From: a virus | Taxonomy: Duplodnaviria; Heunggongvirae; Uroviricota; Caudoviricetes | Reading direction: 5' to 3' (one strand) | DNA length: 43,730 nt | IMG/VR virus record: IMGVR_UViG_2617270944_000006 | Shown: piece by piece, positions 23,956-43,730 of the stretch | Layout of the letters: each line of letters opens with the position of its first letter | Position numbering within the stretch: the stretch's first letter is position 1 | Program-made: the position numbers and the translations under genes | Notes under the pieces: model-generated | What the model was told of the DNA's origin: nothing | What the model saw: the letters and a program-made list of their open reading frames with translations, nothing else | The model's database searches: none

Positions 23956-24226
23956 AATGTTACCGTAATATGTGAGTATCCATCGACTAGACACTAAGCA
24001 AAAAAGCTCCCGAAGGAGCCTTCATTTTCACTTTCTTAAATCTAACGACAGACGGCTAACATTTAAGTATTGTGAAATATTATCAAATGTAATCATCATT
24101 GATTTACAAAAGATACATTTTGCCCCGAAAGGATTCCTGTCAGAAACATCAAAAGATGATGTTCTATACTGAGAACCATGGCAACACGGGCATCTAAAGT
24201 GAATATGGTTTGTAATATTTTCTACC

Positions 24227-24439
24227 TCAAAGTGCCACAACATGAACAGCCGCGGGGCCTTTAGGTCCGTTCTCAATACCAAATTCGACTTCCTGATTCT
24301 CAGTTAACGTTTTGAAATCGTTGCTCTGAATAGCTGAGAAATGGACAAACACATCTTTGCTACCATCTTTCGGCGTGATGAAACCAAAACCTTTTTCAGG
24401 GTTAAACCATTTCACTAAACCAGTCATTTTGTTAGACAT
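24227..24439 (-). CDS. cspI: Cold-shock protein, CspA family (CspI-like, 70 aa)
   Basis: [34 protein letters not shown] cold-shock domain with RNP motifs; adjacent to Rz as cspI is in Qin. Confidence 0.8.
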
Positions 24440-24802
24440 CATTATTACCTTTTGAAGAAGTTAGCCCTTGGGCAGAATGGTCCGAAAAAAAATATCAGAG
24501 AGAAAAACCAACAAGGAAATCTCAAGAGGTACAAATAATAAAATTATAACAATGACTGCTTCAGATAATTTTGTAACAAACCAGAACACCATTAACGCAT
24601 GATTAACCAACCATAGCAAGGATTACTTTTGTAAAGAAAAACACACGAATGAAACAATATCTTTATTTATTAATAAAACGTGTCATTCTGTCTAATGACC
24701 TTTTATCTTACCCTTAAGATTTCAAGGATTTTGACTCATGGAAGAGTCCTTTTTATTTAAATTTCACATTCAGCGCTAAAAATAATCCGATTTAATATTA
24801 AT

Positions 24803-26907: not shown

Positions 26908-27630
26908 CTAAGAAAATCTTGATAAATATTGGTGCGGAGGCACACCAAAATATCTTCTAAAAACACTTACAAAATATGATGCATTGTCATACCCGCATAT
27001 TCCCGCCACCTTGCCGACAGTATGGTTACTGTAGATCAATAATCTTTGCGCCATCATCATTCGTTCTTCAAGAATTAATTTACTAAACGATAATCCTTCG
27101 TCTTTTAATTTTCTTTTTAACAAACTCTCGCTCATATATAATCTTGAAGATATATCACAAAGTCTCCATGACGCTGAGATATCCGAGTGAATAATAGCCT
27201 TAACTTTACAACCTAAGCTATTAAGACTTCCGAACAAAAAACTTTGCACTATTTTCTCTGAAGATAAGACAGCAAGACATGCAAGTGATATTTGATTTCT
27301 AACTACATCCACGGTTTTGCTATCACAATTCAAGCATGCAACCAAGTTCTTTAACAATGAAAAATCTTCACATTCTACTATCAAGTATGACGGATAAAAC
27401 CTTCTTACAGAAAAAGGTGAGAGTGTGTAGTTTTTAAAGAAATCATTAACTGTTTTCTCCTCAACATCTACGATCATTAGATGATCTGTATTTGACGAAA
27501 AAAGATCTTTTAAATTGTATTCAATGAGGACAGCATTTCCTTTTTTAAACAAAATATCTTCTTTACCAATTCGGACACCAAACGAGTTCAACACCAAAAT
27601 GATAGAACATATGTATGGCATATTATCCAC
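26908..27630 (-). CDS. AraC/XylS-family transcriptional regulator (AppY-like architecture), AT-rich cargo gene
   Basis: 240 aa; C-terminal dual-HTH AraC signature (LLIYSNHTVGKVAGICGYDNASYFVSVFRRYFGVPPHQY); strongly AT-rich coding sequence. Confidence 0.75.
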   Translation of the reverse strand: MDNMPYICSIILVLNSFGVRIGKEDILFKKGNAVLIEYNLKDLFSSNTDHLMIVDVEEKTVNDFFKNYTLSPFSVRRFYPSYLIVECEDFSLLKNLVACLNCDSKTVDVVRNQISLACLAVLSSEKIVQSFLFGSLNSLGCKVKAIIHSDISASWRLCDISSRLYMSESLLKRKLKDEGLSFSKLILEERMMMAQRLLIYSNHTVGKVAGICGYDNASYFVSVFRRYFGVPPHQYLSRFS

Positions 27631-28027
27631 CTGATATCATTGGGGTTACACCAGGTAAGTATAGGTGGAAAATCAATATTCGCCAGTTCAACAATAAGGA
27701 AAATCTCATTGCATCACAACTATAAAACCATGTGTTTAACTCACAAAAAACAAATCATTAAACTAATCTGTTATATTATAATAGCTGCGTGCAATAATAA
27801 TATTATATGCTCTTAATATTCACTTGAAATATCTTCATATAAAAACAGATTGAATAAAATCGTTTGGGGCTGGTATGTTTACCAACATTAAATTGCATCT
27901 CAATGTTTTCTTTAGCGTGAACAGGATTTTTATAAAAACTGACACTATGAGCATCATAGCGTAGTTTTTACGATTGTAAATATCCTGCATACAGGAACTC
28001 ATCACTTTCAGATGATATCGCATACAG

Positions 28028-28987
28028 TTAATTCACCATCAGTCTTAGAGCCAGTTCTTCCGGATAGGGATCGAAGTAATTCTGTGTAAGCAAGTAATCA
28101 TTAGGATACTCACCCAGATAATGCTTCAGCAGAGTCAACGGCGCAAGAAGAGGCAATGTGCCAAAGCGATAGTTAAGTATAACCTCGCTCAACTCTTTAC
28201 GCTGGCGTGTACTTAAGTAATTACTAAAATACCCCTGTATATGCATCAGCACATTCGTGTGATTTTTACGTGATGCTGGTTTTCTGAGAATCGCCATCAG
28301 ATTATCACGATACACCTCAAAGTATGATTCAAGGTCCGCCCACTCGTGTATTGCAGCCACAAATGGTCCCATATCTTTATAGCCTGCCTGGCTATGCGCC
28401 AACAACTGAAGCTTATAACGACTATGAAAAGCTAATAACTCTCTTCTTGATAATTTCTCCTTGTAAAGGTGATTGAGCTCATGCAAAGCAAAAACTCTTT
28501 CAATAAAATTCTCACGAAGCACTGGATCATGTAATCGCCCATCCTCTTCAACCGGTAGCCAGGAAAACTTTTCCATCAAAGTGCTCGTAAATAGTCCCAC
28601 TCCATCTTTACGACCTCGATTACCATTTTCATCATAGACACGCACGCGCTCCATGCCACAGCTGGGAGATTTAGCACAAACCACAAACCCCGATACATCC
28701 TTTAATTTGTCCATATAAGAACGACTAAACTCTGTCATTCTCTCTGTCACATCCTCATTCTGGTCGTGGCTGAAACACATCCGTATATTTCCTTGCTTCG
28801 AGCGCACAAGTCGTAGAGCAGGACGCGGAACTGGCAGCCCTATAGCCATTTCCGGACATACTGGTCTGAATGTTACCCATTCCACTAATTTGTCCATTAA
28901 AAAGTCATCTCTTTTGTGACCACCATCAAAACGAACAGCAGAACCGCCCAAACAACCGCTGATCCCAATCACAGGTTTTTTTATCAT
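28028..28987 (-). CDS. DUF523 (TudS-like, putative 4Fe-4S thiouracil desulfidase) fused to DUF1722 (YbgA-like)
   Basis: 319 aa; N-terminus MIKKPVIGISGCLGG..RFDGGHKRD..CPE..GLPVPRP is the DUF523 pattern with candidate cluster cysteines; C-terminal half resembles YbgA/DUF1722. Confidence 0.6.
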   Translation of the reverse strand: MIKKPVIGISGCLGGSAVRFDGGHKRDDFLMDKLVEWVTFRPVCPEMAIGLPVPRPALRLVRSKQGNIRMCFSHDQNEDVTERMTEFSRSYMDKLKDVSGFVVCAKSPSCGMERVRVYDENGNRGRKDGVGLFTSTLMEKFSWLPVEEDGRLHDPVLRENFIERVFALHELNHLYKEKLSRRELLAFHSRYKLQLLAHSQAGYKDMGPFVAAIHEWADLESYFEVYRDNLMAILRKPASRKNHTNVLMHIQGYFSNYLSTRQRKELSEVILNYRFGTLPLLAPLTLLKHYLGEYPNDYLLTQNYFDPYPEELALRLMVN

Positions 28988-29179
28988 ATTCTCCCCCTTG
29001 ACTAATTCATTAACACATAAACTGTGTAGTGCACGGAATAAATTGCCTTTCTGGCGTCATCACTGACAATTTTTCTGTTATGGACTATTCCTAATATAGT
29101 ATGAAAGTTCTTTAAGTGATCGGTCGTACTCATCTATCTTTCATACTTACTCTCAACTATCAAAAGTACAGGATTTATT

Positions 29180-29704
29180 ATGAAGTTATGGCCTGTGTTG
29201 ACTGGCATTGCACTCTCTTTCACTCTTATAGCATGTAAGGCCCCGACACCACCTAAAGGTGTGCAGCCGATTACAAATTTTGACGCCAACCGCTACCTCG
29301 GAAAATGGTATGAAATAGCTCGCCTCGAGAACTGGTTCGAACGTGGTCTGGAACAGGTCAGCGCTACTTATGAAAAACGGAACGACGGAGGGATTCGCGT
29401 ACTTAACCGTGGATACGATCCAACGAAAAACAAATGGAGCGAGAGCGAAGGTAAAGCATACTTTACTGGAGATACTAAAACTGCAGCGTTGAAAGTTTCG
29501 TTTTTTGGCCCCTTCTATGGTGGCTATAATGTAATCAAGCTGGATGATGAGTATAAGTATGCTCTTGTCAGTGGTCCGAACAGAGAATACCTATGGATTC
29601 TGGCAAGGACCCAAACTATTCCAGATAATGTAAAAGTAGACTATGTGCGTACCGCTCAAAAGTTGGGATTCAATGTCAATGAACTATTATGGGTTAAACA
29701 ATAA
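29180..29704 (+). CDS. Lipocalin family outer-membrane lipoprotein (Blc-like)
   Basis: 174 aa; lipoprotein signal (LIAC); motifs NFD..RYLG.WYEIAR, FERGLE, SEGKAYFTG, AALKVSFFGPFYGGYNVI, YLWIL.RT match E. coli Blc as recalled. Confidence 0.85.
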   Translation: MKLWPVLTGIALSFTLIACKAPTPPKGVQPITNFDANRYLGKWYEIARLENWFERGLEQVSATYEKRNDGGIRVLNRGYDPTKNKWSESEGKAYFTGDTKTAALKVSFFGPFYGGYNVIKLDDEYKYALVSGPNREYLWILARTQTIPDNVKVDYVRTAQKLGFNVNELLWVKQ

Positions 29705-29825: not shown

Positions 29826-31020
<1,195 letters not shown>

Positions 31021-31058: not shown

Positions 31059-31451
31059 TTATTTCGAACAATCAGCATCCATCTCCAATCGGAGATCCAA
31101 CACCATCAGCATGCCCTCCACTACGCCCTCAGCTTTCTGGAGCATCCTGCCAACCCAACAATCAGATCGCCCATGCTTACGTGCAAGCGCCATAAAAGTC
31201 ATGCCGCCGACATAATAGTCCACCAATAAATCATGTAAATCGCTGTTGTTTTTTTTCAGGCGAGCCATACATTCACAAATGATCATCGCGTCATCGTCAC
31301 AGCATTGCGGACGAGATCTTACTTTTGAAGGAATTAATCCCTTAAAACCGGCGGCAATGGACGACCAGGTCACATCTTCATGATTATTAGCCGCCCATGC
31401 CCCCCAACGCTCAAGAACCATCTGAATATCACGCATCAACTTACTCCACAA
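31059..31451 (-). CDS. Late-gene antiterminator Q (QuuD-like, about 130 aa)
   Basis: Small Cys-containing protein ([13 protein letters not shown]) upstream of the lysis region and downstream of ydfU-like, the Q position in lambdoid phages; size matches the short Q family. Confidence 0.65.
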
Positions 31452-32849: not shown

Positions 32850-33101
32850 TTATTCTTCTGCAAAAGCTGAAAAGCCTGCTTTTATTCCGATCTCTTTCAG
32901 TGCCTGTAATGAAGTGACAAACTCACCTTCGCGCAAGATAAATCCGTCTGTCACTCGACCATCCACAAAATTAATTAACGCAGCCCCATTCTTTCGCAAA
33001 CACATAATGCGGTAATGACTAACAAGATTTCCATTTTCAACGCACACAGCATAGAGGCCATCTTCACAAAAAATTTTACGCAGTTCTTCGATGTTCATCA
33101 T
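32850..33101 (-). CDS. Hypothetical small protein (83 aa), possibly Rem-like by position and length
   Basis: 83-aa ORF between hok and ydfU-like, where rem (83 aa) sits in Qin; sequence identity not verified. Confidence 0.4.
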   Translation of the reverse strand: MMNIEELRKIFCEDGLYAVCVENGNLVSHYRIMCLRKNGAALINFVDGRVTDGFILREGEFVTSLQALKEIGIKAGFSAFAEE

Positions 33102-33218
33102 CAGAATCCTTCCGGATAATTAGCTCTCCCCTTTAAGGGACCATCCCTCTTATCCCTGCGCGCTACTTAAGTATTTTTGATTCTATTCCGGCACCGTCCA
33201 GAACTTCAAACGCGTTGA

Positions 33219-33249
33219 AAATAAAAACAAAAACCCGCCGAAGCGGGTT
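33219..33249 (-). terminator. Rho-independent terminator downstream of hok
   Basis: Minus-strand hairpin cccgc-ttcg-gcggg followed by tttttgtttttatttt. Confidence 0.7.
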
Positions 33250-33317: not shown

Positions 33318-33473
33318 TTACTCCTCAGGTTCGTAAGCTGTGAAGACAGCGACCTCCGTCTGGCCGGTTCGGATTCGTACCTCGCAGAGGTCTTTCCTCG
33401 TTACCAGTGCCGTCACTATGACGGTTAAACAGATGACGATCAGGGCGATTAACATCGCCTTTTGCTGCTTCAT
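33318..33473 (-). CDS. hokD: Hok/Gef family small membrane toxin (type I toxin-antitoxin), 51 aa
   Basis: MKQQKAMLIALIVICLTVIVTALVTRKDLCEVRIRTGQTEVAVFTAYEPEE matches HokD as recalled; the in-frame upstream extension gives a 70-aa ORF (33318-33530). Confidence 0.85.
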   Translation of the reverse strand: MKQQKAMLIALIVICLTVIVTALVTRKDLCEVRIRTGQTEVAVFTAYEPEE

Positions 33474-33730
33474 AGCCTGCTTCTCCTTGCCTTTCGGCAC
33501 GTAAGAGGCTAACCTACATGTGTCTAGCATGAAATTGGCCTCAGATTAATGTTAAGCGTCTTGCAGGACGCGTAATGTTAACTGGGGCTTTTCTCTACCT
33601 GCCGTTGGTGTTCGTGCCCGAGGCAGATAGCCTCAAGCACCCGCAGTCATTCTACTTAACTAAGATTTCCCCGCAAACCGTTTTGTCCAGCACAGTAAAT
33701 ATCCAACTAAACCAATGGAGTTCGCTGTAT

Positions 33731-35250: not shown

Positions 35251-35673
35251 TCACAGTACCGCCTCCTGAAAATTACCCTGATAGAAAGCCAGTACACGCT
35301 GCATAGCTTCACTCTTCCGGCACTCGCGACAGATTATGTTTAGACGACTGTCGTAGCGACGTATTTCTCCATCAGGTAGTGACCAGATAAGGTCCGGATC
35401 AACCACAGCGGGTTTCTTCACCTTCGCCCTAGAGAGTTTTTTGCGGGCATTTTGCCAGTCCTTTCGTGCCTGTTCAGACGGGAATAACCCGTAGCCGGAG
35501 TTGTATACATAACCACTGGCAACCAGCTCTCTGGCAAGAATGCTCATCAGATATCTTGTCGCACCTGTTTTAGCTTCCAACTGTCGTAATGTCTCGCGAC
35601 CGCTCTGGCGCACAAGTTCGACCACCTGCTCTTTAATTTTTTCCCGCTCTTCCTGTGTAAAAACTTTTGCCAC
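35251..35673 (-). CDS. Hypothetical phage early protein (140 aa), downstream of the replication initiator
   Basis: ORF only; basic C-terminal half with CxxC (CRECRK). Confidence 0.45.
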   Translation of the reverse strand: MAKVFTQEEREKIKEQVVELVRQSGRETLRQLEAKTGATRYLMSILARELVASGYVYNSGYGLFPSEQARKDWQNARKKLSRAKVKKPAVVDPDLIWSLPDGEIRRYDSRLNIICRECRKSEAMQRVLAFYQGNFQEAVL

Positions 35674-35713: not shown

Positions 35714-36679
35714 TTATCCCCTGAAACCAGGCGGAATTTCTGTATCCGGTTCAGAAATATGATTCACACAACGCTGTACAGGTGAACGTCCCAAGCGGAT
35801 GACCAGTTCGTCCCATTTTTCGCGGAGTTTTGACGGGCTCATGATGTTTTTTACCCAGAATGGATCTCGCTGTACCCGACCAAACATTTCGCAAATTTGT
35901 CTGTGGCTTCTGCCATCCAGCATCCGCATTGTGCGCACGTCATTGGCCCAGGCTGTCCAGTTAGGCTCTTTTGGTCGCATGATCTCTCCATCGTCGCTGG
36001 CAGCCTGTTCGTAAAGGTTCACGATCCGTCCCCAAATCCACTGCGCACACGCCAAATCCTCCCTGCTACCCCACTGGCGTTTTTTCGCACTAAACACAAC
36101 CGCGTCGGGGTTCCGGATTAAAAAATCCTGTTCAGCGGTCTGCGGGTCCGGTTGCGAAGCTTCCGGACGAAAAGTGTTTTTATTCTCTGTAGTAATCTCT
36201 GTTGTATTCTCTGTAAGATCATCAGGCCATTTTGACCCGATGACATTGGGTCGTTTTGAACCAATGGAGCGTTTCATTTTGACCTCTTCCATCGTGTCAT
36301 TTTGACCTGATGGAGCGGCGCATTTTGAACCGATGGATTCGTTCAATTTGCCACCATCTAAAAGCTCGCTCCCATAGTTGATCGTGTAGAAATTGGTCAT
36401 ATCGCGCTTTGATTTATTGAGCTTTTCACAACGCAAAAGCCCCAGCGTTTTCAGACTTGCAAACGCGCGCTTTAACGTTGACTCTGACCAGAATGGGAAC
36501 TGTTCCAGCCATTGTTCCGTTGTGTTGTAAATCCAGCGAACACCATCACATTCCATGCCGGAATTGGTATCTCTCAACCAGTAATGCAGTTGTTGCAAAA
36601 CAATGGCTTCGTTTAAGCCAATTTTCATTGCCAGCTGCGTGTTTATAACCAGTGGGCGTTCAGCAAAAAGAAGGCTCAT
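35714..36679 (-). CDS. Replication initiator (lambda O-like, replisome organiser) with internal iteron array
   Basis: N-terminal HTH-like region; the central part is encoded by directly repeated DNA (protein repeats SIGSK..); sits after the cro-like dicC and a cII-position gene. The start is uncertain; the tracked ORF extends to a TTG at 36733. Confidence 0.65.
   Translation of the reverse strand: MSLLFAERPLVINTQLAMKIGLNEAIVLQQLHYWLRDTNSGMECDGVRWIYNTTEQWLEQFPFWSESTLKRAFASLKTLGLLRCEKLNKSKRDMTNFYTINYGSELLDGGKLNESIGSKCAAPSGQNDTMEEVKMKRSIGSKRPNVIGSKWPDDLTENTTEITTENKNTFRPEASQPDPQTAEQDFLIRNPDAVVFSAKKRQWGSREDLACAQWIWGRIVNLYEQAASDDGEIMRPKEPNWTAWANDVRTMRMLDGRSHRQICEMFGRVQRDPFWVKNIMSPSKLREKWDELVIRLGRSPVQRCVNHISEPDTEIPPGFRG
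36228..36350. repeat. Iteron array: 5-6 direct repeats of cattttgaMC(n)gatgg with roughly 23-24 bp spacing (candidate origin of replication)
   Basis: Direct repeats ttttgaccc, ttttgaacc, ttttgacct, ttttgacct, ttttgaacc at approximately 36230, 36254, 36277, 36300 and 36324. Confidence 0.65.
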
Positions 36680-37181
36680 AATTCCATCCAGCTTTTTGTT
36701 GGTATTGCTGTCGATACGCAAGCTTGAAAGCAATTGCTTTTTCTATAAGTTCGTCAGTTTCACGATCCACTACGGCAGGATCAGCAAAAAGCAGTCCGGA
36801 CTCCACCACATCGCCATATTCTTTGTTTAACCCGGCGATCATGCACGTGATGCTTTTTCCGTCAGTAATTTCACGATACAACCTGAAATCACTAATCCGG
36901 ATAGCCTCCATAATCGCAGGCACTAGCGCCGTGAACTTTTCACGCTTATCCCTGGTGTCGATAGCCTTCCAGCGTTCGAATATCTTCACTCGATTAACAC
37001 CAAGCGCTCGCTGATCAACCGCGCCACCTTCATCTGTGACACGCTGAACATCGATGTTCGGGCGCTCTTTCAAAGCCCAGAATGCTTCAGTGATTAATAT
37101 CGTCGCCTGCTCCTGTGTCATTCCTGGTCGACATATCCAGGCATCCAGAGCCTCACGAGCCTGTTCAGGAGTGATTTTCAT
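36660..37181 (-). CDS. Hypothetical early-right protein at the cII position (173 aa)
   Basis: ORF directly downstream of dicC, overlapping its 3' end; no family recognised. Confidence 0.45.
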   Translation of the reverse strand: MKITPEQAREALDAWICRPGMTQEQATILITEAFWALKERPNIDVQRVTDEGGAVDQRALGVNRVKIFERWKAIDTRDKREKFTALVPAIMEAIRISDFRLYREITDGKSITCMIAGLNKEYGDVVESGLLFADPAVVDRETDELIEKAIAFKLAYRQQYQQKAGWNYEPSFC

Positions 37182-37395
37182 TGTTCAACCGCCCCGCCCG
37201 CTTCGTCTTACGATATTCATCATAAACTTTGGGATCATACTGAAGCTCCCCGCCAGATGCCTCCTGTAGACGCATCGCGCGACCTTCAGGAACCAGTATC
37301 CCCCAAGCAGCAACACTTGCCAGCCTCACTCCTGCGGCATTGGCAAGCTTTGTTTTGCTGCCAAAAAAAGTAATTGCGTCAACTTTAAGCATCAA
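37165..37395 (-). CDS. dicC: Cro-like repressor DicC
   Basis: 76 aa, ...FGSKTKLANAAGVRLASVAAW...LVPEGRAMRLQEASGGELQYDPKVYDEYRK matches DicC as recalled; divergent from dicA. Confidence 0.8.
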   Translation of the reverse strand: MMLKVDAITFFGSKTKLANAAGVRLASVAAWGILVPEGRAMRLQEASGGELQYDPKVYDEYRKTKRAGRLNNENHS

Positions 37396-37405
37396 AGCCC
37401 CCTCT

Positions 37406-37423
37406 TGTTAGACTTTTCTAACA
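37406..37423. promoter_or_regulatory. Operator palindrome TGTTAGActtttTCTAACA in the dicC-dicA intergenic region
   Basis: Perfect inverted repeat TGTTAGA/TCTAACA between the divergent repressor genes. Confidence 0.65.
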
Positions 37424-37472
37424 TTATTGTGCGCGGGATACCTAAGTCAAGAAAAATTAGAATTACCTAACT

Positions 37473-37880
37473 ATGGATACAAGAACCCTGGGCCAGCGAG
37501 TTCTGGCGCGACGAAAAGAATTACGCTTAACACAACGAGAAGCCGCGCGCCTCGCTGGAGTTGCTCACGTCACAATTTCACAATGGGAAAGAGACGAAAC
37601 CCAGCCAGTCGGAAAACGATTGTTTGCTTTAGCGGATGCTCTGAAGTGCTCACCTACATGGCTAATGTTTGGTGACGAAGACAAGGCACCAGTGCCTGCA
37701 CAAGAACTTCATGTGGAAACAGAGCTAACTCCCAACCACAAAGAATTGATCGAATTATTCGATGCTCTTCCATCTTCCGAGCAGGAAGCCTTGCTGTCTG
37801 AAATGCGCGCAAGAGTAGAAAACTTCAACAAACTCTTCGAAGAAATGCTTAAAGCGCGTAAAAATAAATCAATAAAATAA
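37473..37880 (+). CDS. dicA: CI-like repressor DicA (XRE-family HTH)
   Basis: 135 aa; HTH LTQREAARLAGVAHVTISQWERDETQP and C-terminal ...CSPTWLMFGDEDK...EMRARVENFNKLFEEMLKAR match DicA as recalled. Confidence 0.85.
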   Translation: MDTRTLGQRVLARRKELRLTQREAARLAGVAHVTISQWERDETQPVGKRLFALADALKCSPTWLMFGDEDKAPVPAQELHVETELTPNHKELIELFDALPSSEQEALLSEMRARVENFNKLFEEMLKARKNKSIK

Positions 37881-37915
37881 CATTCTTTTCAAGTGATTAG
37901 TTGCGCCCACCCTTT

Positions 37916-37935
37916 TTGTTAGATCAATCTAACAA
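37916..37935. promoter_or_regulatory. Second operator palindrome TTGTTAGAtcaaTCTAACAA upstream of ydfA (dicB operon promoter region)
   Basis: Same half-sites as the dicA/dicC operator; an imperfect third copy (tgttaggttattctaaa) lies about 20 bp downstream. Confidence 0.65.
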
Positions 37936-38048
37936 AAAACACTTGCCTCTCATGTTAGGTTATTCTAAATTATTTTCCATCAAGACACCGCACGGTGTTC
38001 TCAGCAAACAGTTCCGCTACCCCGGCGTTAAGGGGAAATGAGGTCAGC

Positions 38049-38204
38049 ATGGATACTATCGATCTTGGCAACAGCGAATCTCTGGTATGTGGCGTGTTCC
38101 CCAACCAGGACGGTACGTTCACCGCGATGACGTATACCAAAAGCAAAACGTTTAAAACCGAAAATGGTGCCCGTCGCTGGCTGGAAAGAAACCCAGGTGA
38201 GTGA
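38049..38204 (+). CDS. ydfA: YdfA (DUF1391), 51 aa
   Basis: MDTIDLGNSESLVCGVFPNQDGTFTAMTYTKSKTFKTENGARRWLERNPGE; GAGG RBS. Confidence 0.8.
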   Translation: MDTIDLGNSESLVCGVFPNQDGTFTAMTYTKSKTFKTENGARRWLERNPGE

Positions 38205-38205
38205 T

Positions 38206-38334
38206 ATGGATTTCGACACAATCATGGAAAAGGCTTACGAAGAATACTTCGAAGGTCTTGCCGACGGCGAAGAAGCTCTCAGCTTCAACGAATTTAAACA
38301 GGCGCTTTCCAGTTCGGCAAAATCTAACGGCTGA
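38206..38334 (+). CDS. ydfB: YdfB, 42 aa
   Basis: Manual translation MDFDTIMEKAYEEYFEGLADGEEALSFNEFKQALSSSAKSNG; starts 1 nt after the ydfA stop; below the ORF-track size cutoff. Confidence 0.7.
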   Translation: MDFDTIMEKAYEEYFEGLADGEEALSFNEFKQALSSSAKSNG

Positions 38335-38363
38335 TAAGCGAAACAGCACCGCGAGGAATCAGT

Positions 38364-38582
38364 ATGCAGAAACGAGAACCCGTCATCATCGCGCCAGACT
38401 ATACCGATGATGAACTTTATGAGTGGATGCGCCAGAAAATTAATGCAGCGCAGGATTTGAAATGGGCCAATGAAACCAGGGCTAAGCAGGCTGAAAATCT
38501 GTCCGCTCTGGAGCAGGATATCACCAATCTGGAAAAAGCAGCGGCATTAAGCATTGCCAGAATGATTACATACCCGCGTTAG
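38364..38582 (+). CDS. ydfC: YdfC, 72 aa
   Basis: 72-aa ORF in the Qin ydfC position between ydfB and dicF; sequence identity not independently recalled. Confidence 0.75.
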   Translation: MQKREPVIIAPDYTDDELYEWMRQKINAAQDLKWANETRAKQAENLSALEQDITNLEKAAALSIARMITYPR

Positions 38583-38922
38583 TAGCTAATCAACAAAGCT
38601 AAGGTTAGTAATTAAGGAGTTCTCCACGGGTGAGGTGGAGTGTGTGCGCCGGACACGGGTGAGCATCCGGCACTGACAGTTTACTGAAAGGATATTTCCC
38701 TGAAAAGTCAGACCATAACGCGAAAGCGCACGGCGAGGTAGCTGGTTCATAGATAGCCTGTCGTTAAATTTTCGTCGACCGTGCGCTTCCGGTTGTGGCA
38801 ACCCGCGAAATGGCGCGGCGGTAAGTATGGCGGGGTTATTCCTTCCCCGTTGAGGACACCGGGTTGTCAGGTTGACCATACGCTTAAGTGACAACCCCGC
38901 TGCAACGCCCTCTGTTATCAAT

Positions 38923-38980
38923 TTTCTGGTGACGTTTGGCGGTATCAGTTTTACTCCGTGACTGCTCTGCCGCCCTTTTT
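38923..38980 (+). ncRNA. dicF: DicF small regulatory RNA (Hfq-dependent sRNA that represses ftsZ), including its terminator hairpin
   Basis: Sequence tttctggtgacgtttggcggtatcagttttactccgtgactgctctgccgccc followed by ttttt matches DicF as I recall it; located between ydfC and dicB. Confidence 0.85.
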
Positions 38981-39149
38981 AAAGTGAATTTTGTGATGTG
39001 GTGAATGCGGCTGAGCGCACGCGGAACAGATAAAACCAAAAACAGTGTTATGGGTGGATTCTCTGTATCCGGCGTTAATTGTTAACTGGTTAACGTCACC
39101 TGGAGGCACCAGGCACTGCATCACAAAATTCATTGTTGAGGACGCGATA

Positions 39150-39338
39150 ATGAAAACGTTATTACCAAACGTTAATACGTCTGAAGGTTGTTTTGAAATT
39201 GGTGTCACTATCAGTAACCCAGTATTTACTGAAGATGCCATTAACAAGAGAAAACAAGAACGGGAGCTATTAAATAAAATATGCATTGTTTCAATGCTGG
39301 CTCGTTTACGTCTGATGCCAAAAGGATGTGCACAATGA
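39150..39338 (+). CDS. dicB: Cell division inhibitor DicB (acts with MinC), 62 aa
   Basis: MKTLLPNVNTSEGCFEIGVTISNPVFTEDAINKRKQERELLNKICIVSMLARLRLMPKGCAQ. Confidence 0.85.
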   Translation: MKTLLPNVNTSEGCFEIGVTISNPVFTEDAINKRKQERELLNKICIVSMLARLRLMPKGCAQ

Positions 39339-39526
39339 ATTCAGCATTTGTGCTTGTTCTGACAGTTTTTCTTGTTTCCGGAGAGCCAGTTGATATTGCA
39401 GTCAGTGTGCACAGGACAATGCAGGAGTGTATGACTGCAGCAACCGAACAGAAAATTCCCGGTAACTGTTACCCGGTCGATAAAGTTATTCACCAGGATA
39501 ATATCGAAATCCCGGCAGGTCTTTAA
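39335..39526 (+). CDS. ydfD: YdfD small membrane lysis protein, 63 aa
   Basis: MNSAFVLVLTVFLVSGEPVDIAVSV...; ATGA overlap with the dicB stop; N-terminal TM helix. Confidence 0.7.
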   Translation: MNSAFVLVLTVFLVSGEPVDIAVSVHRTMQECMTAATEQKIPGNCYPVDKVIHQDNIEIPAGL

Positions 39527-39619
39527 AACAGTTCCGTAATAAATATCCGGTTTCATTCTTATATGCCAGCAATGGCAGGGATTTGTTCATCCTTAAATCT
39601 GTCATGAGGTTAAAACAAA

Positions 39620-42091
39620 ATGAGTAAAGTCTTTATTTGCGCCGCTATTCCTGACGAACTGGCAACAAGGGAAGAAGGCGCTGTGGCTGTAGCCACAGCC
39701 ATTGAAGCTGGCGACGAACGCCGTGCTCGAGCAAAATTTCACTGGCAGTTCCTGGAACATTATCCGGCTGCTCAGGACTGCGCTTATAAATTTATTGTCT
39801 GCGAGGATAAACCTGGCATACCCCGCCCTGCCCTCGATTCATGGGATGCTGAATATATGCAGGAAAACCGCTGGGATGAGGAGTCTGCTTCTTTTGTCCC
39901 GGTTGAGACTGAATCCGATCCGATGAACGTCACTTTTGACAAGCTGGCCCCTGAAGTACAGAACGCTGTCATGGTTAAGTTCGACACATGTGAAAACATC
40001 ACCGTTGATATGGTTATTAGCGCACAGGAATTGTTGCAGGAAGACATGGCAACATTCGACGGACATATCGTTGAAGCGTTGATGAAAATGCCAGAAGTTA
40101 ACGCCATGTATCCGGAGCTTAAGTTGCACGCCATTGGGTGGGTTAAGCATAAATGTATTCCTGGTGCTAAATGGCCCGAAATTCAGGCAGAGATGCGCAT
40201 CTGGAAAAAACGTCGCGAAGGTGAACGCAAGGAAACCGGAAAATACACGTCTGTTGTTGATCTCGCCCGCGCCAGAACCAATCAACAGTACACTGAAAAT
40301 TCAACAGGAAAAATCAACCCGGTCATTGCTGCCATTCATCGCGAATACAAGCAGACATGGAAAACACTGGATGACGAACTGGCCTACGCTCTCTGGCCTG
40401 GTGATGTGGATGCCGGAAACATTGACGGCAGCATCCATCGCTGGGCAAAAAAAGAAGTTATCGACAACGACCGCGAAGACTGGAAGCGTATCTCGGCATC
40501 AATGCGCAAACAGCCTGATGCCCTTCGCTACGACCGCCAGACTATTTTTGGCCTTGTCCGTGAGCGTCCGATCGACATTCACAAAGATCCCATAGCACTG
40601 AACAAATATATCTGCGAATACCTGACGACAAAGGGCGTGTTTGAGAATGAAGAAACAGACCTGGGCACTGTTGATGTTCTCCAGTCATCAGAAACACAAA
40701 CTGATGCAGTGGAAACTGAGGTATCTGATATCCCAAAAAATGAAACCGCGCCGGAAGCTGAACCATCTGTAGAGCGTGAGGGGCCGTTCTATTTCCTCTT
40801 CGCAGATAAGGACGGAGAAAAATACGGTCGCGCAAACAAACTTTCTGGTCTGGATAAGGCACTGGCTGCTGGCGCCACTGAAATCACAAAAGAAGAATAT
40901 TTTGCCCGAAAAAATGGCACATACACGGGCTTACCGCAAAATGTAGATACCGCTGAAGATTCAGAACAACCAGAGCCGATAAAAGTTACCGCTGACGAAG
41001 TAAACAAAATTATGCAGGCAGCCAATATCAGCCAGCCTGACGCCGATAAGTTGCTTGCTGCATCACGTGGTGAATTTGTTGAAGGGATTAGTGACCCGAA
41101 TGATCCGAAATGGGTTAAGGGGATCCAGACCCGCGATTCTGTGAACCAGAACCAGCATGAATCGGAACGGAACTACCAAAAAGCGGAACAAAACAGCACA
41201 AATGCGTTACAAAACGAGCCAGAAACGAAACAGCCTGAACCAGTGGCGCAACTGGAAGTGGAAAAAGTCTGCACCGCCTGCGGTCAGACCGGCGGCGGCA
41301 ACTGCCCTGATTGTGGCGCGGTGATGGGCGACGCAACATACCAGGAAACATTCGATGAAGAGTATCAGGTTGAAGTTCAGGAAGATGATCTGGAGGAAAT
41401 GGAAGGCGCTGAACATCCACACAAGGAGAACACTGGCGGCAATCAGCATCACAATAGCGATAATGAAACTGGCGAGACGGCAGATCACTCAATTAAGGTG
41501 AACGGTCATCACGAAATCACATCCACCAGCAGGACGTGTGACCATCTAATGATCGACCTTGAAACCATGGGAAAAAATCCTGATGCCCCGATCATCTCAA
41601 TAGGTGCAATATTTTTCGATCCGCAAACCGGAGATATGGGACCGGAATTTAGTAAGACTATCGATCTGGAAACTGCTGGCGGAGTCATTGATCGGGACAC
41701 CATTAAATGGTGGCTTAAGCAATCACGCGAAGCGCAATCTGCCATTATGACCGATGAAATCCCGTTAGATGATGCACTGTTACAATTGCGGGAATTTATC
41801 GACGAAAACTCCGGTGAATTTTTTGTTCAGGTTTGGGGAAATGGAGCCAACTTCGACAACACGATTTTGCGCCGTTCATACGAACGGCAGGGGATCCCCT
41901 GCCCGTGGCGTTACTACAACGATCGCGATGTACGCACAATCGTTGAGCTGGGGAAAGCCATAGACTTCGATGCCAGAACGGCTATTCCATTCGAAGGTGA
42001 GCGCCATAATGCACTTGATGACGCCCGTTACCAGGCAAAATACGTTTCAGTTATCTGGCAAAAACTGATCCCGAGTCAGGCTGATTCTTAA
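39620..42091 (+). CDS. Large early-left protein (823 aa): acidic N-terminal region of unknown function, CxxC-x10-CxxC zinc ribbon, C-terminal DnaQ-like DEDDh 3'-5' exonuclease domain (intact YdfE-like)
   Basis: C-terminal motifs MIDLETMG (Exo I), WGNGANFD (Exo II), HNALDDARYQ (Exo III, H-x4-D); zinc ribbon CTACGQTGGGNCPDCG; occupies the ydfE position between ydfD and xis/int. Confidence 0.65.
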   Translation: MSKVFICAAIPDELATREEGAVAVATAIEAGDERRARAKFHWQFLEHYPAAQDCAYKFIVCEDKPGIPRPALDSWDAEYMQENRWDEESASFVPVETESDPMNVTFDKLAPEVQNAVMVKFDTCENITVDMVISAQELLQEDMATFDGHIVEALMKMPEVNAMYPELKLHAIGWVKHKCIPGAKWPEIQAEMRIWKKRREGERKETGKYTSVVDLARARTNQQYTENSTGKINPVIAAIHREYKQTWKTLDDELAYALWPGDVDAGNIDGSIHRWAKKEVIDNDREDWKRISASMRKQPDALRYDRQTIFGLVRERPIDIHKDPIALNKYICEYLTTKGVFENEETDLGTVDVLQSSETQTDAVETEVSDIPKNETAPEAEPSVEREGPFYFLFADKDGEKYGRANKLSGLDKALAAGATEITKEEYFARKNGTYTGLPQNVDTAEDSEQPEPIKVTADEVNKIMQAANISQPDADKLLAASRGEFVEGISDPNDPKWVKGIQTRDSVNQNQHESERNYQKAEQNSTNALQNEPETKQPEPVAQLEVEKVCTACGQTGGGNCPDCGAVMGDATYQETFDEEYQVEVQEDDLEEMEGAEHPHKENTGGNQHHNSDNETGETADHSIKVNGHHEITSTSRTCDHLMIDLETMGKNPDAPIISIGAIFFDPQTGDMGPEFSKTIDLETAGGVIDRDTIKWWLKQSREAQSAIMTDEIPLDDALLQLREFIDENSGEFFVQVWGNGANFDNTILRRSYERQGIPCPWRYYNDRDVRTIVELGKAIDFDARTAIPFEGERHNALDDARYQAKYVSVIWQKLIPSQADS

Positions 42092-42163
42092 TGTTCAACT
42101 GTCGCCGGTTGTGACTGGTATTCTGCAACCGGCGCTCGTCTAATGTAAGAGATAAAGAAATCG

Positions 42164-42415
42164 ATGAGCGAAGTAATCATGATTGTCTCTCCCGGCAAAT
42201 GGGTATCCGAAGAGCAGTTAATTGCGCTGAAAGGAATAAAAAAAGGTACGTTAAAAAAGGCCCGGGAAAAATCGTTTATGGAAGGAAGGGAATATAAGCA
42301 TGTCGCTCATGACGGTATGCCATGGGATAACAGCCCATGCTTTTACAACCTGGAAGAAATTGATCGCTGGATTGAGCGCCAGGCATCAGCGAGACCAAGA
42401 CGTCATCTTACTTGA
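42164..42415 (+). CDS. Excisionase-like protein (Xis)
   Basis: 83-aa ORF immediately upstream of the integrase gene on the same strand. Confidence 0.55.
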   Translation: MSEVIMIVSPGKWVSEEQLIALKGIKKGTLKKAREKSFMEGREYKHVAHDGMPWDNSPCFYNLEEIDRWIERQASARPRRHLT

Positions 42416-42434
42416 CTAAAAGCCACACTAACTA

Positions 42435-43730
42435 ATGAGAGAAGTTGAAATGAAATATCCGACAGGCGTGGAAAACCATGGAGGGAAATTACGTATCTGG
42501 TTTGTTTATAAAGGCGTAAGAGTCAGGGAAAATCTGGGGGTTCCTGACACAGCAAAAAACAGGCGCGTTGCAGGTGAACTACGCGCCTCTGTTTGTTACG
42601 CAATAAAAACTGGTGTTTTCGACTATGCAAAACAGTTTCCCTCCTCACGCAATCTGGAAAAATTTGGTGAGGCCCGACAAGATTTAACCATAAAAGAACT
42701 GGCTGAAAAATTTCTGGCACTGAAAGAAACTGAAGTCGCAAAAACATCACTCAACACATACCGTGCCGTCATCAAAAATATCCTGAGCATAATCGGTGAA
42801 AAAAATCTTGCCTCATCGATTAATAAAGAAAAATTACTGGAGGTTCGTAAAGAGCTACTGACTGGATACCAGATCCCCAAAAGTAACTATATTGTTACAC
42901 AACCAGGGAGATCGGCTGTAACTGTAAATAATTACATGACAAATCTTAACGCCGTGTTCCAGTTTGGTGTTGATAACGGTTACTTGGCAGATAACCCGTT
43001 TAAGGGGATCTCGCCATTAAAGGAATCAAGAACCATTCCGGATCCTCTTTCGCGGGAGGAATTCATCCGTCTTATCGATGCGTGCAGAAATCAGCAAGCC
43101 AAAAATTTATGGTGTGTTTCTGTTTATACTGGCGTTCGCCCTGGTGAGCTGTGTGCACTTGGATGGGAGGACATAGATCTGAAAAATGGAACAATGATGA
43201 TCAGGAGAAATTTAGCAAAAGACCGTTTCACGGTACCAAAAACACAGGCGGGAACCAATCGGGTCATTCATCTTATTAAGCCAGCAATCGACGCTCTCCG
43301 GAGTCAGATGACATTAACGAGACTGAGCAAAGAGCATATCATTGATGTTCACCTCAGAGAGTATGGCAGAACAGAAAAACAAAAATGCACCTTTGTTTTT
43401 CAACCTGAAGTGTCAGCGAGAGTAAAAAATTATGGTGACCATTTTACCGTTGACTCAATAAGGCAGATGTGGGACGCAGCGATAAAACGTGCCGGACTCC
43501 GCCATCGAAAATCATATCAGTCGAGACATACTTATGCCTGCTGGTCGCTGACAGCTGGTGCTAACCCGGCATTTATAGCAAACCAGATGGGCCATGCAGA
43601 TGCGCAAATGGTATTTCAGGTATACGGAAAATGGATGTCTGAAAACAATAATGCACAGGTAGCTTTGTTAAATACACAGTTAAGCGAGTTTGCCCCAACC
43701 ATGCCCCATAACGAAGCAATGAAAAATTAA
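42435..43730 (+). CDS. Tyrosine site-specific recombinase (phage integrase)
   Basis: 431 aa; C-terminal catalytic region with conserved Arg, H-x-x-R (SRHTYACW) and Tyr (VYGKWM); the stop is the last codon in the window, so the attachment site lies beyond the window. Confidence 0.85.
   Translation: MREVEMKYPTGVENHGGKLRIWFVYKGVRVRENLGVPDTAKNRRVAGELRASVCYAIKTGVFDYAKQFPSSRNLEKFGEARQDLTIKELAEKFLALKETEVAKTSLNTYRAVIKNILSIIGEKNLASSINKEKLLEVRKELLTGYQIPKSNYIVTQPGRSAVTVNNYMTNLNAVFQFGVDNGYLADNPFKGISPLKESRTIPDPLSREEFIRLIDACRNQQAKNLWCVSVYTGVRPGELCALGWEDIDLKNGTMMIRRNLAKDRFTVPKTQAGTNRVIHLIKPAIDALRSQMTLTRLSKEHIIDVHLREYGRTEKQKCTFVFQPEVSARVKNYGDHFTVDSIRQMWDAAIKRAGLRHRKSYQSRHTYACWSLTAGANPAFIANQMGHADAQMVFQVYGKWMSENNNAQVALLNTQLSEFAPTMPHNEAMKN

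Follow-up and report, generated by a model that had tools for sequence, protein, structure and literature searches.

Positions 37165 to 39526 of the window (i.e., the whole 43,730-nucleotide stretch of DNA that was analyzed) hold the known DicA/DicC repressor switch and the dicF-dicB cell-division-inhibitor operon in an intact and ordinary form. The parts listed in an earlier note on this DNA (i.e., dicC, dicA, the operators, ydfA, ydfB, ydfC, dicF, dicB, and ydfD) were all found intact where that note had placed them. The gene dicC (37165 to 37392, minus strand) encodes a Cro-like regulator of 75 amino acids (aa) that matches the Pfam family P22_Cro (E = 4.9e-12) and PHROG 409 (transcription regulator); PGAP and the homologues place its start at an ATG (37392), versus a TTG (37395) in the open reading frame list. 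It heads the operon dicC-ydaT-O-..., overlapping the ydaT-like gene by 17 nt. In alignments, DicC is 87% identical to its K-12 counterpart, and its C-terminal 43 residues are invariant among alleles. The divergent gene dicA (37473 to 37880, plus strand) encodes a CI-like repressor of 135 aa with an HTH_3 domain at residues 12 to 64 (E = 1.5e-14), and this allele is 56% identical to K-12 DicA. A Cro-like gene diverging from a gene for an HTH repressor of about 135 aa is what defines a Qin-type module, and the CI/Cro analogy that had been drawn for DicA and DicC holds.

The remaining genes of the module lie downstream of dicA on the plus strand. They begin with ydfA (38049 to 38204; DUF1391), ydfB (38206 to 38334), and ydfC (38364 to 38582), whose products share 48 of 51, 40 of 42, and 71 of 72 residues, respectively, with those of K-12 (the start positions of ydfA, ydfB, and dicB were corrected to 38049, 38206, and 39150). 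No N-like protein was seen among YdfA, YdfB, and YdfC when their sequences were read by eye. An untranslated spacer (38583 to 38922) that is near-identical to that of K-12 precedes dicF; RNase III and RNase E cut the corresponding RNA upstream of DicF and thereby release this small RNA (PMC10448788). The dicF sequence itself (38923 to 38975; 53 nt, ending in a terminator hairpin and a T-run) matches Rfam family RF00039 over model positions 1 to 52 of 52 (76.7 bits; E = 2.5e-15; gathering score, 48); a permissive Rfam search contributed nothing further except an STnc100 match below threshold. The alignment with K-12 that the earlier note had proposed revealed no inactivating change: dicF is base-for-base identical to b1574, as are about 220 nt upstream of it, and the dicF-dicB spacer departs from K-12 by a single A/T difference. 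The operon continues with dicB (39150 to 39338; 62 aa; Pfam DicB [PF05358], E = 1.9e-40), which encodes the MinC-dependent division inhibitor, and ydfD (39335 to 39526; 63 aa; DUF1482, E = 3.9e-26), the start of which overlaps the dicB stop (ATGA); both products are 100% identical to those of K-12. In K-12, DicA represses dicBp and dicCp, and filamentation results from DicF and DicB (PMC10448788, PMC3441716).

The claim that TGTTAGA-TCTAACA operators recur at both promoters was borne out by two perfect TGTTAGA-N4-TCTAACA palindromes and two degenerate copies. Exact matches to TGTTAGANNNNTCTAACA occur twice in the window (37406 to 37423 and 37917 to 37934) and were absent from 100 shuffles. The relaxed core GTTAG-N6-CTAA has four exact sites in the 43.7-kb window, all within the two intergenic regions, and two of the four (37456 to 37471 and 37953 to 37970) are imperfect sites of the GTTAGG-TWAT-TCTAA type. 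On the dicC side, the predicted operator Oc (37406 to 37423; TGTTAGA-CTTT-TCTAACA) abuts the −10 element of a dicC promoter-like site on the minus strand (37423 to 37450; TTGACT, 16 nt, AATAAT; 10 of 12 consensus matches), the counterpart of which was underlined in K-12 as the putative −35/−10 of dicC (PMC3441716). The position of Oc is orthologous to that of K-12 Oc, TTGTTAGTCATAACTAACAA, to which DicA binds in vivo and which loses activity when CTAACA becomes CTCACA (PMC3441716); the critical A of CTAACA is kept here. A second, imperfect operator is predicted at 37456 to 37471 (GTTAGGTAATTCTAA on the minus strand), 2 nt before the dicA ATG. It overlaps a TAGAAT hexamer, a candidate for the −10 element of dicA, and the allele of strain 442/2 carries an identical site.

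On the dicB side, the predicted operator OB1 (37917 to 37934; TGTTAGA-TCAA-TCTAACA) lies just upstream of the −35 of the putative dicBp, the analogue of PL (37943 to 37971, plus strand; TTGCCT, 17 nt, TAAATT). We placed dicBp by alignment to the K-12 dicA-ydfA intergenic sequence TTGACC...TAATCT, which was read as the putative K-12 dicBp; the site is missing from the promoter scan listing because it has only 8 of 12 consensus matches. The imperfect predicted operator OB2 (37953 to 37970; GTTAGGTTATTCTAA) falls within the dicBp spacer. Since K-12 DicA did not bind the weaker operator-like sites Om and Oa (PMC3441716), OB2 and the site at 37456 to 37471 may serve DicC or nothing. The operators covary with the HTH, with the mEp460/S171-1 allele having TTGAG-N4-CTCAA at the same positions, and the DicA allele of the window would presumably use the four sites described here. 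An 18-bp palindrome with 7-4-7 geometry is also the operator of phage P22.

The 5′ leader of the dicBF operon (37975 to 38048, plus strand) is invariant across three immunity alleles and yielded no fold signal (z = 0.50). Antiterminator put RNAs of the HK022 type are about 70 nt long and form two long stem-loops directly after an early promoter. The leader was rejected as such an RNA on the basis of its z value, the absence of HK022 from the BLAST matches, and a comparison with the HK022 PL-PR immunity region, which gave only chance 7- to 10-mers and no putL or putR similarity. Its position in conserved sequence flanking the immunity cassette is a simpler explanation of its invariance.

The window as a whole is a structurally complete Qin-family lambdoid prophage of Escherichia coli. 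As the earlier note had stated, the module is attached to intact genes: those for replication, lysis, packaging, head, tail, xis, and int are all full length. A relative that is 99.6% identical (i.e., the S171-1 prophage) has 51 annotated genes, all 51 of which are full length in the window, including those for terminase, portal, capsid, tail, lysis, Q, O, Xis, and Int. The genes for an exonuclease (39620 to 42091; 823 aa; C-terminus PF16473), xis (42164 to 42415), and int (42450 to 43730), all on the plus strand and full length relative to S171-1, form the remainder of the leftward-type early operon (39620 to 43730). The att sites lie outside the window. On the minus strand, beyond dicC, are a ydaT-like CII analogue (36660 to 37181; PHROG 163, CII-like, E = 2.6e-40), an O-like replication initiator gene (35714 to 36679; PHROG 391, E = 2.7e-92), and a DUF977/Ren-like gene (35251 to 35673; PHROG 142), which are 98 to 100% identical to those of mEp460_ev081. 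Farther along this strand, the Q antiterminator gene (31062 to 31436; stop codon near 31059 to 31061) matches Phage_antitermQ over profile positions 1 to 118 of 118 (E = 6.9e-51). An IS5 element (29826 to 31020; CTAA duplication; transposase 100% identical; ends read from the sequence) is inserted 37 bp after Q, at the junction of Q and the late operon, where a late-promoter scan found only a weak candidate overlapping the 3′ end of Q.

The closest well-studied counterpart is the K-12 Qin dicAC-dicBF region (b1569 to b1576), which matches the module in gene content and gene order and occupies the same position in the chromosome, beside rspB. The sequences of dicF, dicB, and ydfD are identical between the two, ydfABC are near-identical (1 to 3 substitutions), and the antirepressor gene rem is 96% identical. 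Operator positions and the outer half-sites (TGTTAG/CTAACA) are likewise shared, while the operator centers (T-CATA-A in K-12 and A-CTTT-T in the window), DicA, and DicC differ. In addition, the ydaT, O, exonuclease, xis, int, and structural genes are intact in the window, whereas K-12 Qin retains the remnants ydfX, ydfW, ydfE′, and intQ′; conversely, relBE, flxA, and ydfV of K-12 Qin are absent from the window. The module and its regulation have been described in print before (Bejar 1986; Yun 2012; Lemire 2011; Ragunathan 2023), and the earlier note had presented as inference what the literature already contained. A literature search on PhiR42_1 found nothing.

The window and the S171-1 prophage are 99.6% identical over 37.3 kb and differ only at 37297 to 38702. 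The exchanged segment covers the DicC N-terminus, dicA, the operators, and ydfABC, and its right end (near 38703) falls inside the pre-dicF spacer. The DicA and DicC proteins of S171-1 are 100% identical to those of mEp460_ev081 (LR597641), a plaque-forming phage (PMC6969025) that has the same gene order as the window from int to Q. The immunity cassette of mEp460_ev081 and S171-1 is distinct from that of the window (DicA, 50 to 52% identity; DicC, 76% identity), with its own operators as noted above and another gene in place of ydfB/ydfC. Because the swap is limited to 37297 to 38702 and the same architecture is present in a plaque-forming phage, the identification of the DicA/DicC region as an exchangeable, true immunity region is well supported by these comparisons.

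An alternative is that the prophage is no longer viable and that the module survives only as a domesticated device through which the host controls cell division and phage exclusion (the situation in K-12 Qin), with DicA/DicC acting as a bistable switch for DicF/DicB output rather than as a working phage immunity region. The locus is carried by 4,768 genomes. Among 168 records with a near-identical region, the DicA allele of the window was 100% identical in all five other genomes checked, and, in line with domestication, the same DicA/DicC allele resides in plainly decayed Qin remnants that carry IS elements and pseudogenes (17MR471, SC407, CFSAN064036, E275a, and S51). The IS5 element, possibly within the short late-leader transcript, points the same way, as do two pseudogenes between DUF977 and hokD in the S171-1 prophage and the finding that none of the collection genomes covers the right half of the window to more than 95%. 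However, the full-length state of all 51 annotated genes argues against decay, most of the corresponding genes being gone in K-12, where ydfE and intQ are pseudogenes, and so does the near identity of the early-region proteins to those of a plaque-forming phage. Q-modified RNA polymerase is terminator resistant, as is known for lambda, and an IS element between Q and the late genes therefore need not be inactivating. The prophage is probably viable, and we regard domestication as possible but rather unlikely.

The earlier note had described the switch as the true immunity region of an inducible phage. The immunity part of this description stands, given the cassette swap and mEp460_ev081, but inducibility by SOS or mitomycin C does not, since neither an S24 domain nor a LexA box above chance was found. 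That note had also made its reading depend on DicA having cleavable and DNA-binding domains; the HTH is present, and the S24/cleavage domain is absent. Residues 1 to 71 of DicA match the DNA-binding domain of P22 C2 (1adr; E = 1.3e-18), nothing in the PDB matched the C-terminal half, and Pfam gave no match at E ≤ 0.01 to Peptidase_S24, the C-terminal domain that bears the Ser/Lys dyad of self-cleaving repressors. Judging from this domain content, DicA is not a repressor of the SOS-cleavable kind. Lambda-type induction would require RecA-stimulated self-cleavage of DicA in the SOS response, with mitomycin C acting directly. The homology of the DicA N-terminal domain to the cleavable repressors P22 C2 and phage 21 CI is compatible with this mechanism, as is the recovery of a DicA-family phage, phiES15, through UV induction (host line of its record), but with only 135 aa, DicA loses similarity to C2 and to LexA-family cleavable repressors at residue 80. 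Furthermore, Gifsy repressors of the DicA class are not cleaved (PMC3121763), and DicA is devoid of the Ala-Gly cleavage site (PMC10448788). We thus consider direct cleavage exceedingly improbable; prophages with DicA-type repressors should not be presumed inducible by mitomycin C or SOS.

The published derepression route for DicA is the antirepressor Rem, whose activity was shown for the K-12 protein (PMC10448788). An intact rem gene (32850 to 33101, minus strand; 83 aa) lies in the window, outside the coordinates covered by the earlier note, with its own promoter-like site (33180 to 33209) behind the hokD terminator (33232 to 33249). Its product is 100% identical to Rem of mEp460_ev081 and of HannyBb and 96% identical to K-12 Rem, and by analogy, the DicA allele of the window probably responds to it. 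A mismatch between DicA and Rem arising from the cassette swap was suggested by strain 442/2, in which a DicA of 94% identity coexists with a Rem of only 60 to 63% identity; this suggestion was weakened by the four further genomes sampled, all of which pair the identical DicA allele with a K-12-type Rem (90 to 100% identity).

In Gifsy-type induction, LexA would repress the antirepressor gene, and SOS would act via Rem. The gene rem does occupy the gfoA/gftA slot, which follows the replication genes and precedes irsA or ydfU and Q, and Rem was discovered by PSI-BLAST starting from GfoA (PMC10448788). Against LexA control, no perfect LexA box (CTGT-N8-ACAG) is present in the window, and a graded scan of the window found two weak sites, not above chance (shuffle mean, 1.0) and neither adjoining rem. 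Moreover, hokD/sok stands in place of the dinI/LexA-box unit, and the signal for Rem was called unknown by the authors who described it (PMC10448788). LexA-controlled induction through Rem is accordingly very unlikely in our estimation.

The evidence instead favors, with high probability, the interpretation that 37165 to 39526 serves for immunity and early-left control in a Qin-family lambdoid prophage whose repressor is short and noncleavable, with an organization like that of lambda cI-PRM/PR-cro plus OL/PL. The presence, intactness, positions, and homology of the parts and the cassette swap were observed in the window, while binding, repression, antirepression, and RNA processing are taken from K-12 and O157 experiments on parts that are 56 to 100% identical; the regulatory logic follows published work (PMC10448788, PMC3441716). 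In lysogeny, DicA dimers would occupy the 7-4-7 palindromes. At Oc, DicA would cover the −10/+1 of the dicC promoter, turning off dicC-ydaT-O-...-rem-...-Q, and would also sustain its own weak promoter; at OB1/OB2, it would bracket the −35 and fill the dicBp spacer, turning off ydfABC-dicF-dicB-ydfD-exonuclease-xis-int. Once DicA is inactivated (the known routes being Rem, heat or urea, and stochastic loss), DicC would be made and would repress dicA, locking the lytic state. Cleavage of the dicBp transcript by RNase III and RNase E would then release DicF, which would block ftsZ translation; read-through would yield DicB (MinC-dependent Z-ring block; ManXYZ inhibition), YdfD, the exonuclease, Xis, and Int; and the dicC-side transcript would yield the CII-like YdaT, the O-like initiator, and Q.

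This organization resembles those of P22 C2/Cro and lambda CI/Cro in that the repressor and cro genes diverge and each early promoter has operators, and the P22 likeness extends to the DicA DNA-binding domain and to DicC. It differs from both in that DicA has no C-terminal S24 self-cleavage domain and in that two operators per promoter, rather than three, are recognizable. A CI-like, noncleavable repressor of about 135 aa and a small antirepressor encoded beyond the replication genes and apart from the immunity region are shared with Gifsy-1, -2, and -3 of Salmonella (GfoR/GtgR with GfoA/GftA), and DicA was named as a member of the Gifsy repressor group (PMC3121763); unlike those phages, the window has hokD/sok, not a LexA box or dinI, before the antirepressor gene. 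The window is a clean example of K-12 cryptic Qin before decay, with its value lying mainly in annotation: the "cell-division toxin" operon dicBF is nothing more than a PL-type early operon, belonging to a lambdoid phage and comparable to the lambda kil region, and DicA/DicC is the immunity switch of that phage.

Antirepressor cross-induction of heteroimmune prophages occurs in Gifsy phages. In the present comparison, two DicA alleles with 50% mutual identity come with the very same 83-aa Rem, and a third, that of K-12, comes with a Rem of 96% identity. Tentatively, these pairings suggest that cassettes could be swapped among Qin-family phages without rematching the antirepressor and that heteroimmune Qin-type prophages sharing a cell could be cross-induced by a single Rem, although we hold this to be somewhat short of an even chance. 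The natural occurrence of a single Rem alongside several DicA alleles provides a simple genetic handle on antirepressor target recognition and on the rem-inducing signal. A 237-aa HTH protein near the lysis genes, considered as a second regulator or antirepressor, proved instead to be an AraC-family moron.

The cell division inhibition module at positions 37165 to 39526 is correctly and completely described by the parts list of the earlier note and is well annotated. ORF calling and searches against Pfam and Rfam recovered dicC (37165 to 37392, minus strand; P22_Cro family), dicA (37473 to 37880; HTH_3; 135 amino acids), ydfA (DUF1391), ydfB, ydfC, the small RNA DicF (38924 to 38975; full-length Rfam match, 76.7 bits; gathering score, 48), dicB (PF05358; E = 1.9e-40), and ydfD (DUF1482). 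DicB and YdfD are each 100% identical to their K-12 counterparts, and YdfA, YdfB, and YdfC differ from theirs at 3, 2, and 1 residues, respectively. In the alignment to K-12 that the note had proposed as a check, dicF and the ~220 nt 5' of it show no differences from the MG1655 copy, and the spacer between dicF and dicB differs by one base. This spacer and the start of dicB (38973 to 39182) gave a subthreshold Rfam match (34.1 bits; gathering score, 47; E = 4.4e-5) to STnc100, a Salmonella sRNA family, which suggests homology between the spacer and a stable transcript known from Salmonella prophages.

Such a module is already known. According to PMC10448788, Béjar et al. (1986) likened dicAC to a lambdoid immunity region, and Ragunathan et al. 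(2023; PMC10448788) showed its bistable behavior and pointed out a functional phage with dicAC, dicBF, and rem. The locus or parts of it are present in 4,768 of 5,426 complete E. coli genomes; with positions 36600 to 39700 as the query, 787 genomes contain at least 80% of this region at a single location, and 168 records reach an identity of at least 99% to it. Deposited phage genomes with the locus include PhiR42_1, HannyBb, mEp460_ev081, Tritos, and the PPompW set.

The whole window is an E. coli prophage of the lambdoid Qin family. It spans from the tail fiber genes (position 1) to the stop codon of the integrase gene (43730), which lies next to rspB, where Qin is integrated in K-12. The attachment of the module to intact replication and structural genes was confirmed by comparison with the prophage of strain S171-1 (99.6% identity over 37.3 kb), since all 51 of its annotated proteins (including terminase, portal, protease-capsid fusion, tail, lysis, Q, O-like initiator, exonuclease, Xis, and Int) are full length and stop-free in the window; tfaQ is clipped by the window edge. 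In K-12 Qin, the structural genes have been lost and ydfE (truncated by IS2) and intQ are pseudogenes, whereas the counterparts in the window are intact. The only conspicuous imperfection is an IS5 element (29826 to 31020; 1,195 bp; CTAA target duplication) inserted 37 bp past the stop codon of Q; a strong terminator hairpin (29761 to 29738, late-gene strand) follows ~60 bp farther on. The element may lie inside a short leader transcript of the late promoter, which our scan did not place confidently. In strain CFSAN064036, the same Q lacks the IS5 and is separated from the lipocalin gene by 155 bp. The window has three cargo genes in the interval from Q to the lysis cassette (26911 to 29704); they encode a lipocalin (opposite strand), a protein of the YbgA family, and a 237-amino-acid regulator of the AraC family (HTH_18; E = 1.8e-17). 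The intact ydfE counterpart (39620 to 42091) encodes an 823-amino-acid "exonuclease / exodeoxyribonuclease VIII," the sole recognized domain of which is C-terminal and Rv2179c-like (3'-5' exoribonuclease; PF16473; E = 2.3e-67), not a RecE fold; its first ~640 residues have no Pfam match, and no annealing-protein partner gene adjoins it. Full-length Rfam matches were also obtained for the cspA thermoregulator (cspI leader and coding sequence; 24181 to 24597, minus strand; 109.8 bits) and for sok, the hokD antisense RNA (33468 to 33642, minus strand; 107.8 bits). In K-12 Qin, hokD is preceded by a relBE-ydfV-flxA block, which the window lacks.

The proposal that the switch is the true immunity region of an inducible phage is partly supported: the immunity region reading holds, on the basis of a cassette swap, a plaque-forming relative, and operator covariation, while SOS-type inducibility does not. 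The differences between the window and S171-1 are confined to a 1.4-kb exchanged cassette (37297 to 38702) comprising the N-terminal DNA-binding half of DicC, the whole of dicA, both operator clusters, and ydfABC. The cassette ends inside the dicC coding sequence (around codon 32) and ~220 nt 5' of dicF, and colinear identity to S171-1 is 99 to 99.6% on both flanks. Among the complete genomes of our collection, coverage of the right half of the window does not exceed 95%; this exact mosaic therefore appears to have no counterpart there. The S171-1 DicA and DicC proteins are 100% identical to those of mEp460_ev081, a temperate phage from a study of infant stool isolates and viromes in which plaque-forming temperate coliphages were cultured (PMC6969025). 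Its gene order is that of the window (i.e., int-xis-exonuclease-ydfD-dicB-dicF through to the repressor, then dicC-ydaT-O-DUF977 and, farther on, hok-rem-ydfU-Q). A YdaT-like protein occupies the CII position (PHROG "CII-like"; E = 2.6e-40) and is followed by the O-like initiator. With DicA equivalent to CI, DicC to Cro, dicCp to PR, and dicBp (the promoter of the ydfABC-dicF-dicB-ydfD operon) to PL, the gene order and the operator and promoter positions reproduce the layout of lambda.

The operator palindromes noted in both promoter regions are present as exactly two copies of TGTTAGA-N4-TCTAACA (37406 to 37423 and 37917 to 37934; 0 matches in 100 shuffles). The relaxed core GTTAG-N6-CTAA has four exact matches in the whole 43.7-kb window, two per intergenic region and none elsewhere, and each region contains one perfect palindrome and one GTTAGG-TWAT-TCTAA site. 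Oc, the palindrome at the dicC promoter, is orthologous to K-12 Oc (TTGTTAGTCATAACTAACAA), which is bound by DicA in vivo and loses binding upon a single A>C change (PMC3441716); the critical A is kept in the window. Oc abuts the -10 element of a well-matched dicC promoter (TTGACT-16-AATAAT), and the second cluster brackets the -35 element and occupies the spacer of the sequence aligned to K-12 dicBp. The outer half-sites (TGTTAG/CTAACA) and a similar recognition helix are common to the window and K-12, and TTGAG-N4-CTCAA occupies these positions in the mEp460/S171-1 allele. On this sequence evidence, the operators covary with the repressor allele. The dicA gene is without a Shine-Dalgarno sequence (37456 to 37475), and a TAnnAT hexamer lies 8 to 9 nt 5' of its ATG in all three alleles (TAGAAT in the window, TAGCAT in K-12, and TAAGAT in S171-1), a position that would give a leaderless or near-leaderless mRNA. 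The lambda cI mRNA from PRM is leaderless or near-leaderless. Reg-Seq reported no dicA start site in the region studied (PMC7567609). The 5' leader of the dicBF operon (37975 to 38048) is invariant in three immunity alleles that diverge elsewhere, and was therefore tested as a put-like antiterminator RNA. Its conservation in Cronobacter phage phiES15 is ~80%. The put-like candidate was rejected, as the leader folds no better than shuffled sequences (z = 0.50), has no significant predicted structure, and lacks similarity to the HK022 put region.

Lambda-like SOS induction is at odds with the features of DicA. Residues 1 to 71 correspond to the DNA-binding domain of P22 C2, whose structure is solved (E = 1.3e-18), the likeness to cleavable repressors ends at residue 80, and Pfam detected no Peptidase_S24 domain in the 135-residue protein; DicA thus lacks the cleavable domain, a finding that the earlier note had named as counting against its reading. 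DicA is a member of the Gifsy class of short repressors, uncleaved proteins that small antirepressors inactivate (PMC3121763). Gifsy has dinI and a LexA box, whereas the window has neither: CTGT-N8-ACAG is absent from it, and weaker LexA box matches do not exceed chance. Given a noncleavable DicA and no LexA box, a response to mitomycin C is not predicted from the sequence. The known inputs in K-12 are Rem, DicC-dependent stochastic switching, heat, and urea (PMC10448788), and DicA binding is temperature dependent (PMC3441716). Ectopic Rem, the Qin antirepressor, derepresses dicBp 165-fold and causes DicF/DicB-dependent filamentation (PMC10448788). In the window, rem is intact (32850 to 33101) and lies behind the hokD terminator with its own promoter-like site; the protein is 100% identical to Rem of mEp460_ev081 and 96% identical to that of K-12.

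The window DicA is 56% identical to the K-12 protein, 50% to the mEp460 allele, and 94% to that of E. coli 442/2. Rem of 442/2 is only 60 to 63% identical to the window Rem, which raised the possibility that a cassette swap had uncoupled repressor and antirepressor. Four further genomes combine 100% identical DicA and DicC with a K-12-type Rem (90 to 100% identity) at the same locus, which makes this a common pairing. At least two DicA alleles with a mutual identity of 50% thus occur together with the same Rem. Between DicA alleles, the N-terminal domains are 44 to 49% identical and the C-terminal halves 54 to 65% identical, with two strongly conserved motifs. These patterns suggest that Rem may recognize conserved features of DicA and could act across immunity types. 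The 442/2 sequence is a deposited "phage Rac" fragment (MN652886.1) in which the annotation of dicA reads "prophage repressor" and that of rem "prophage antirepressor"; the fragment's replication module (ydaU/ydaV/ydaW) is unlike that of the window.
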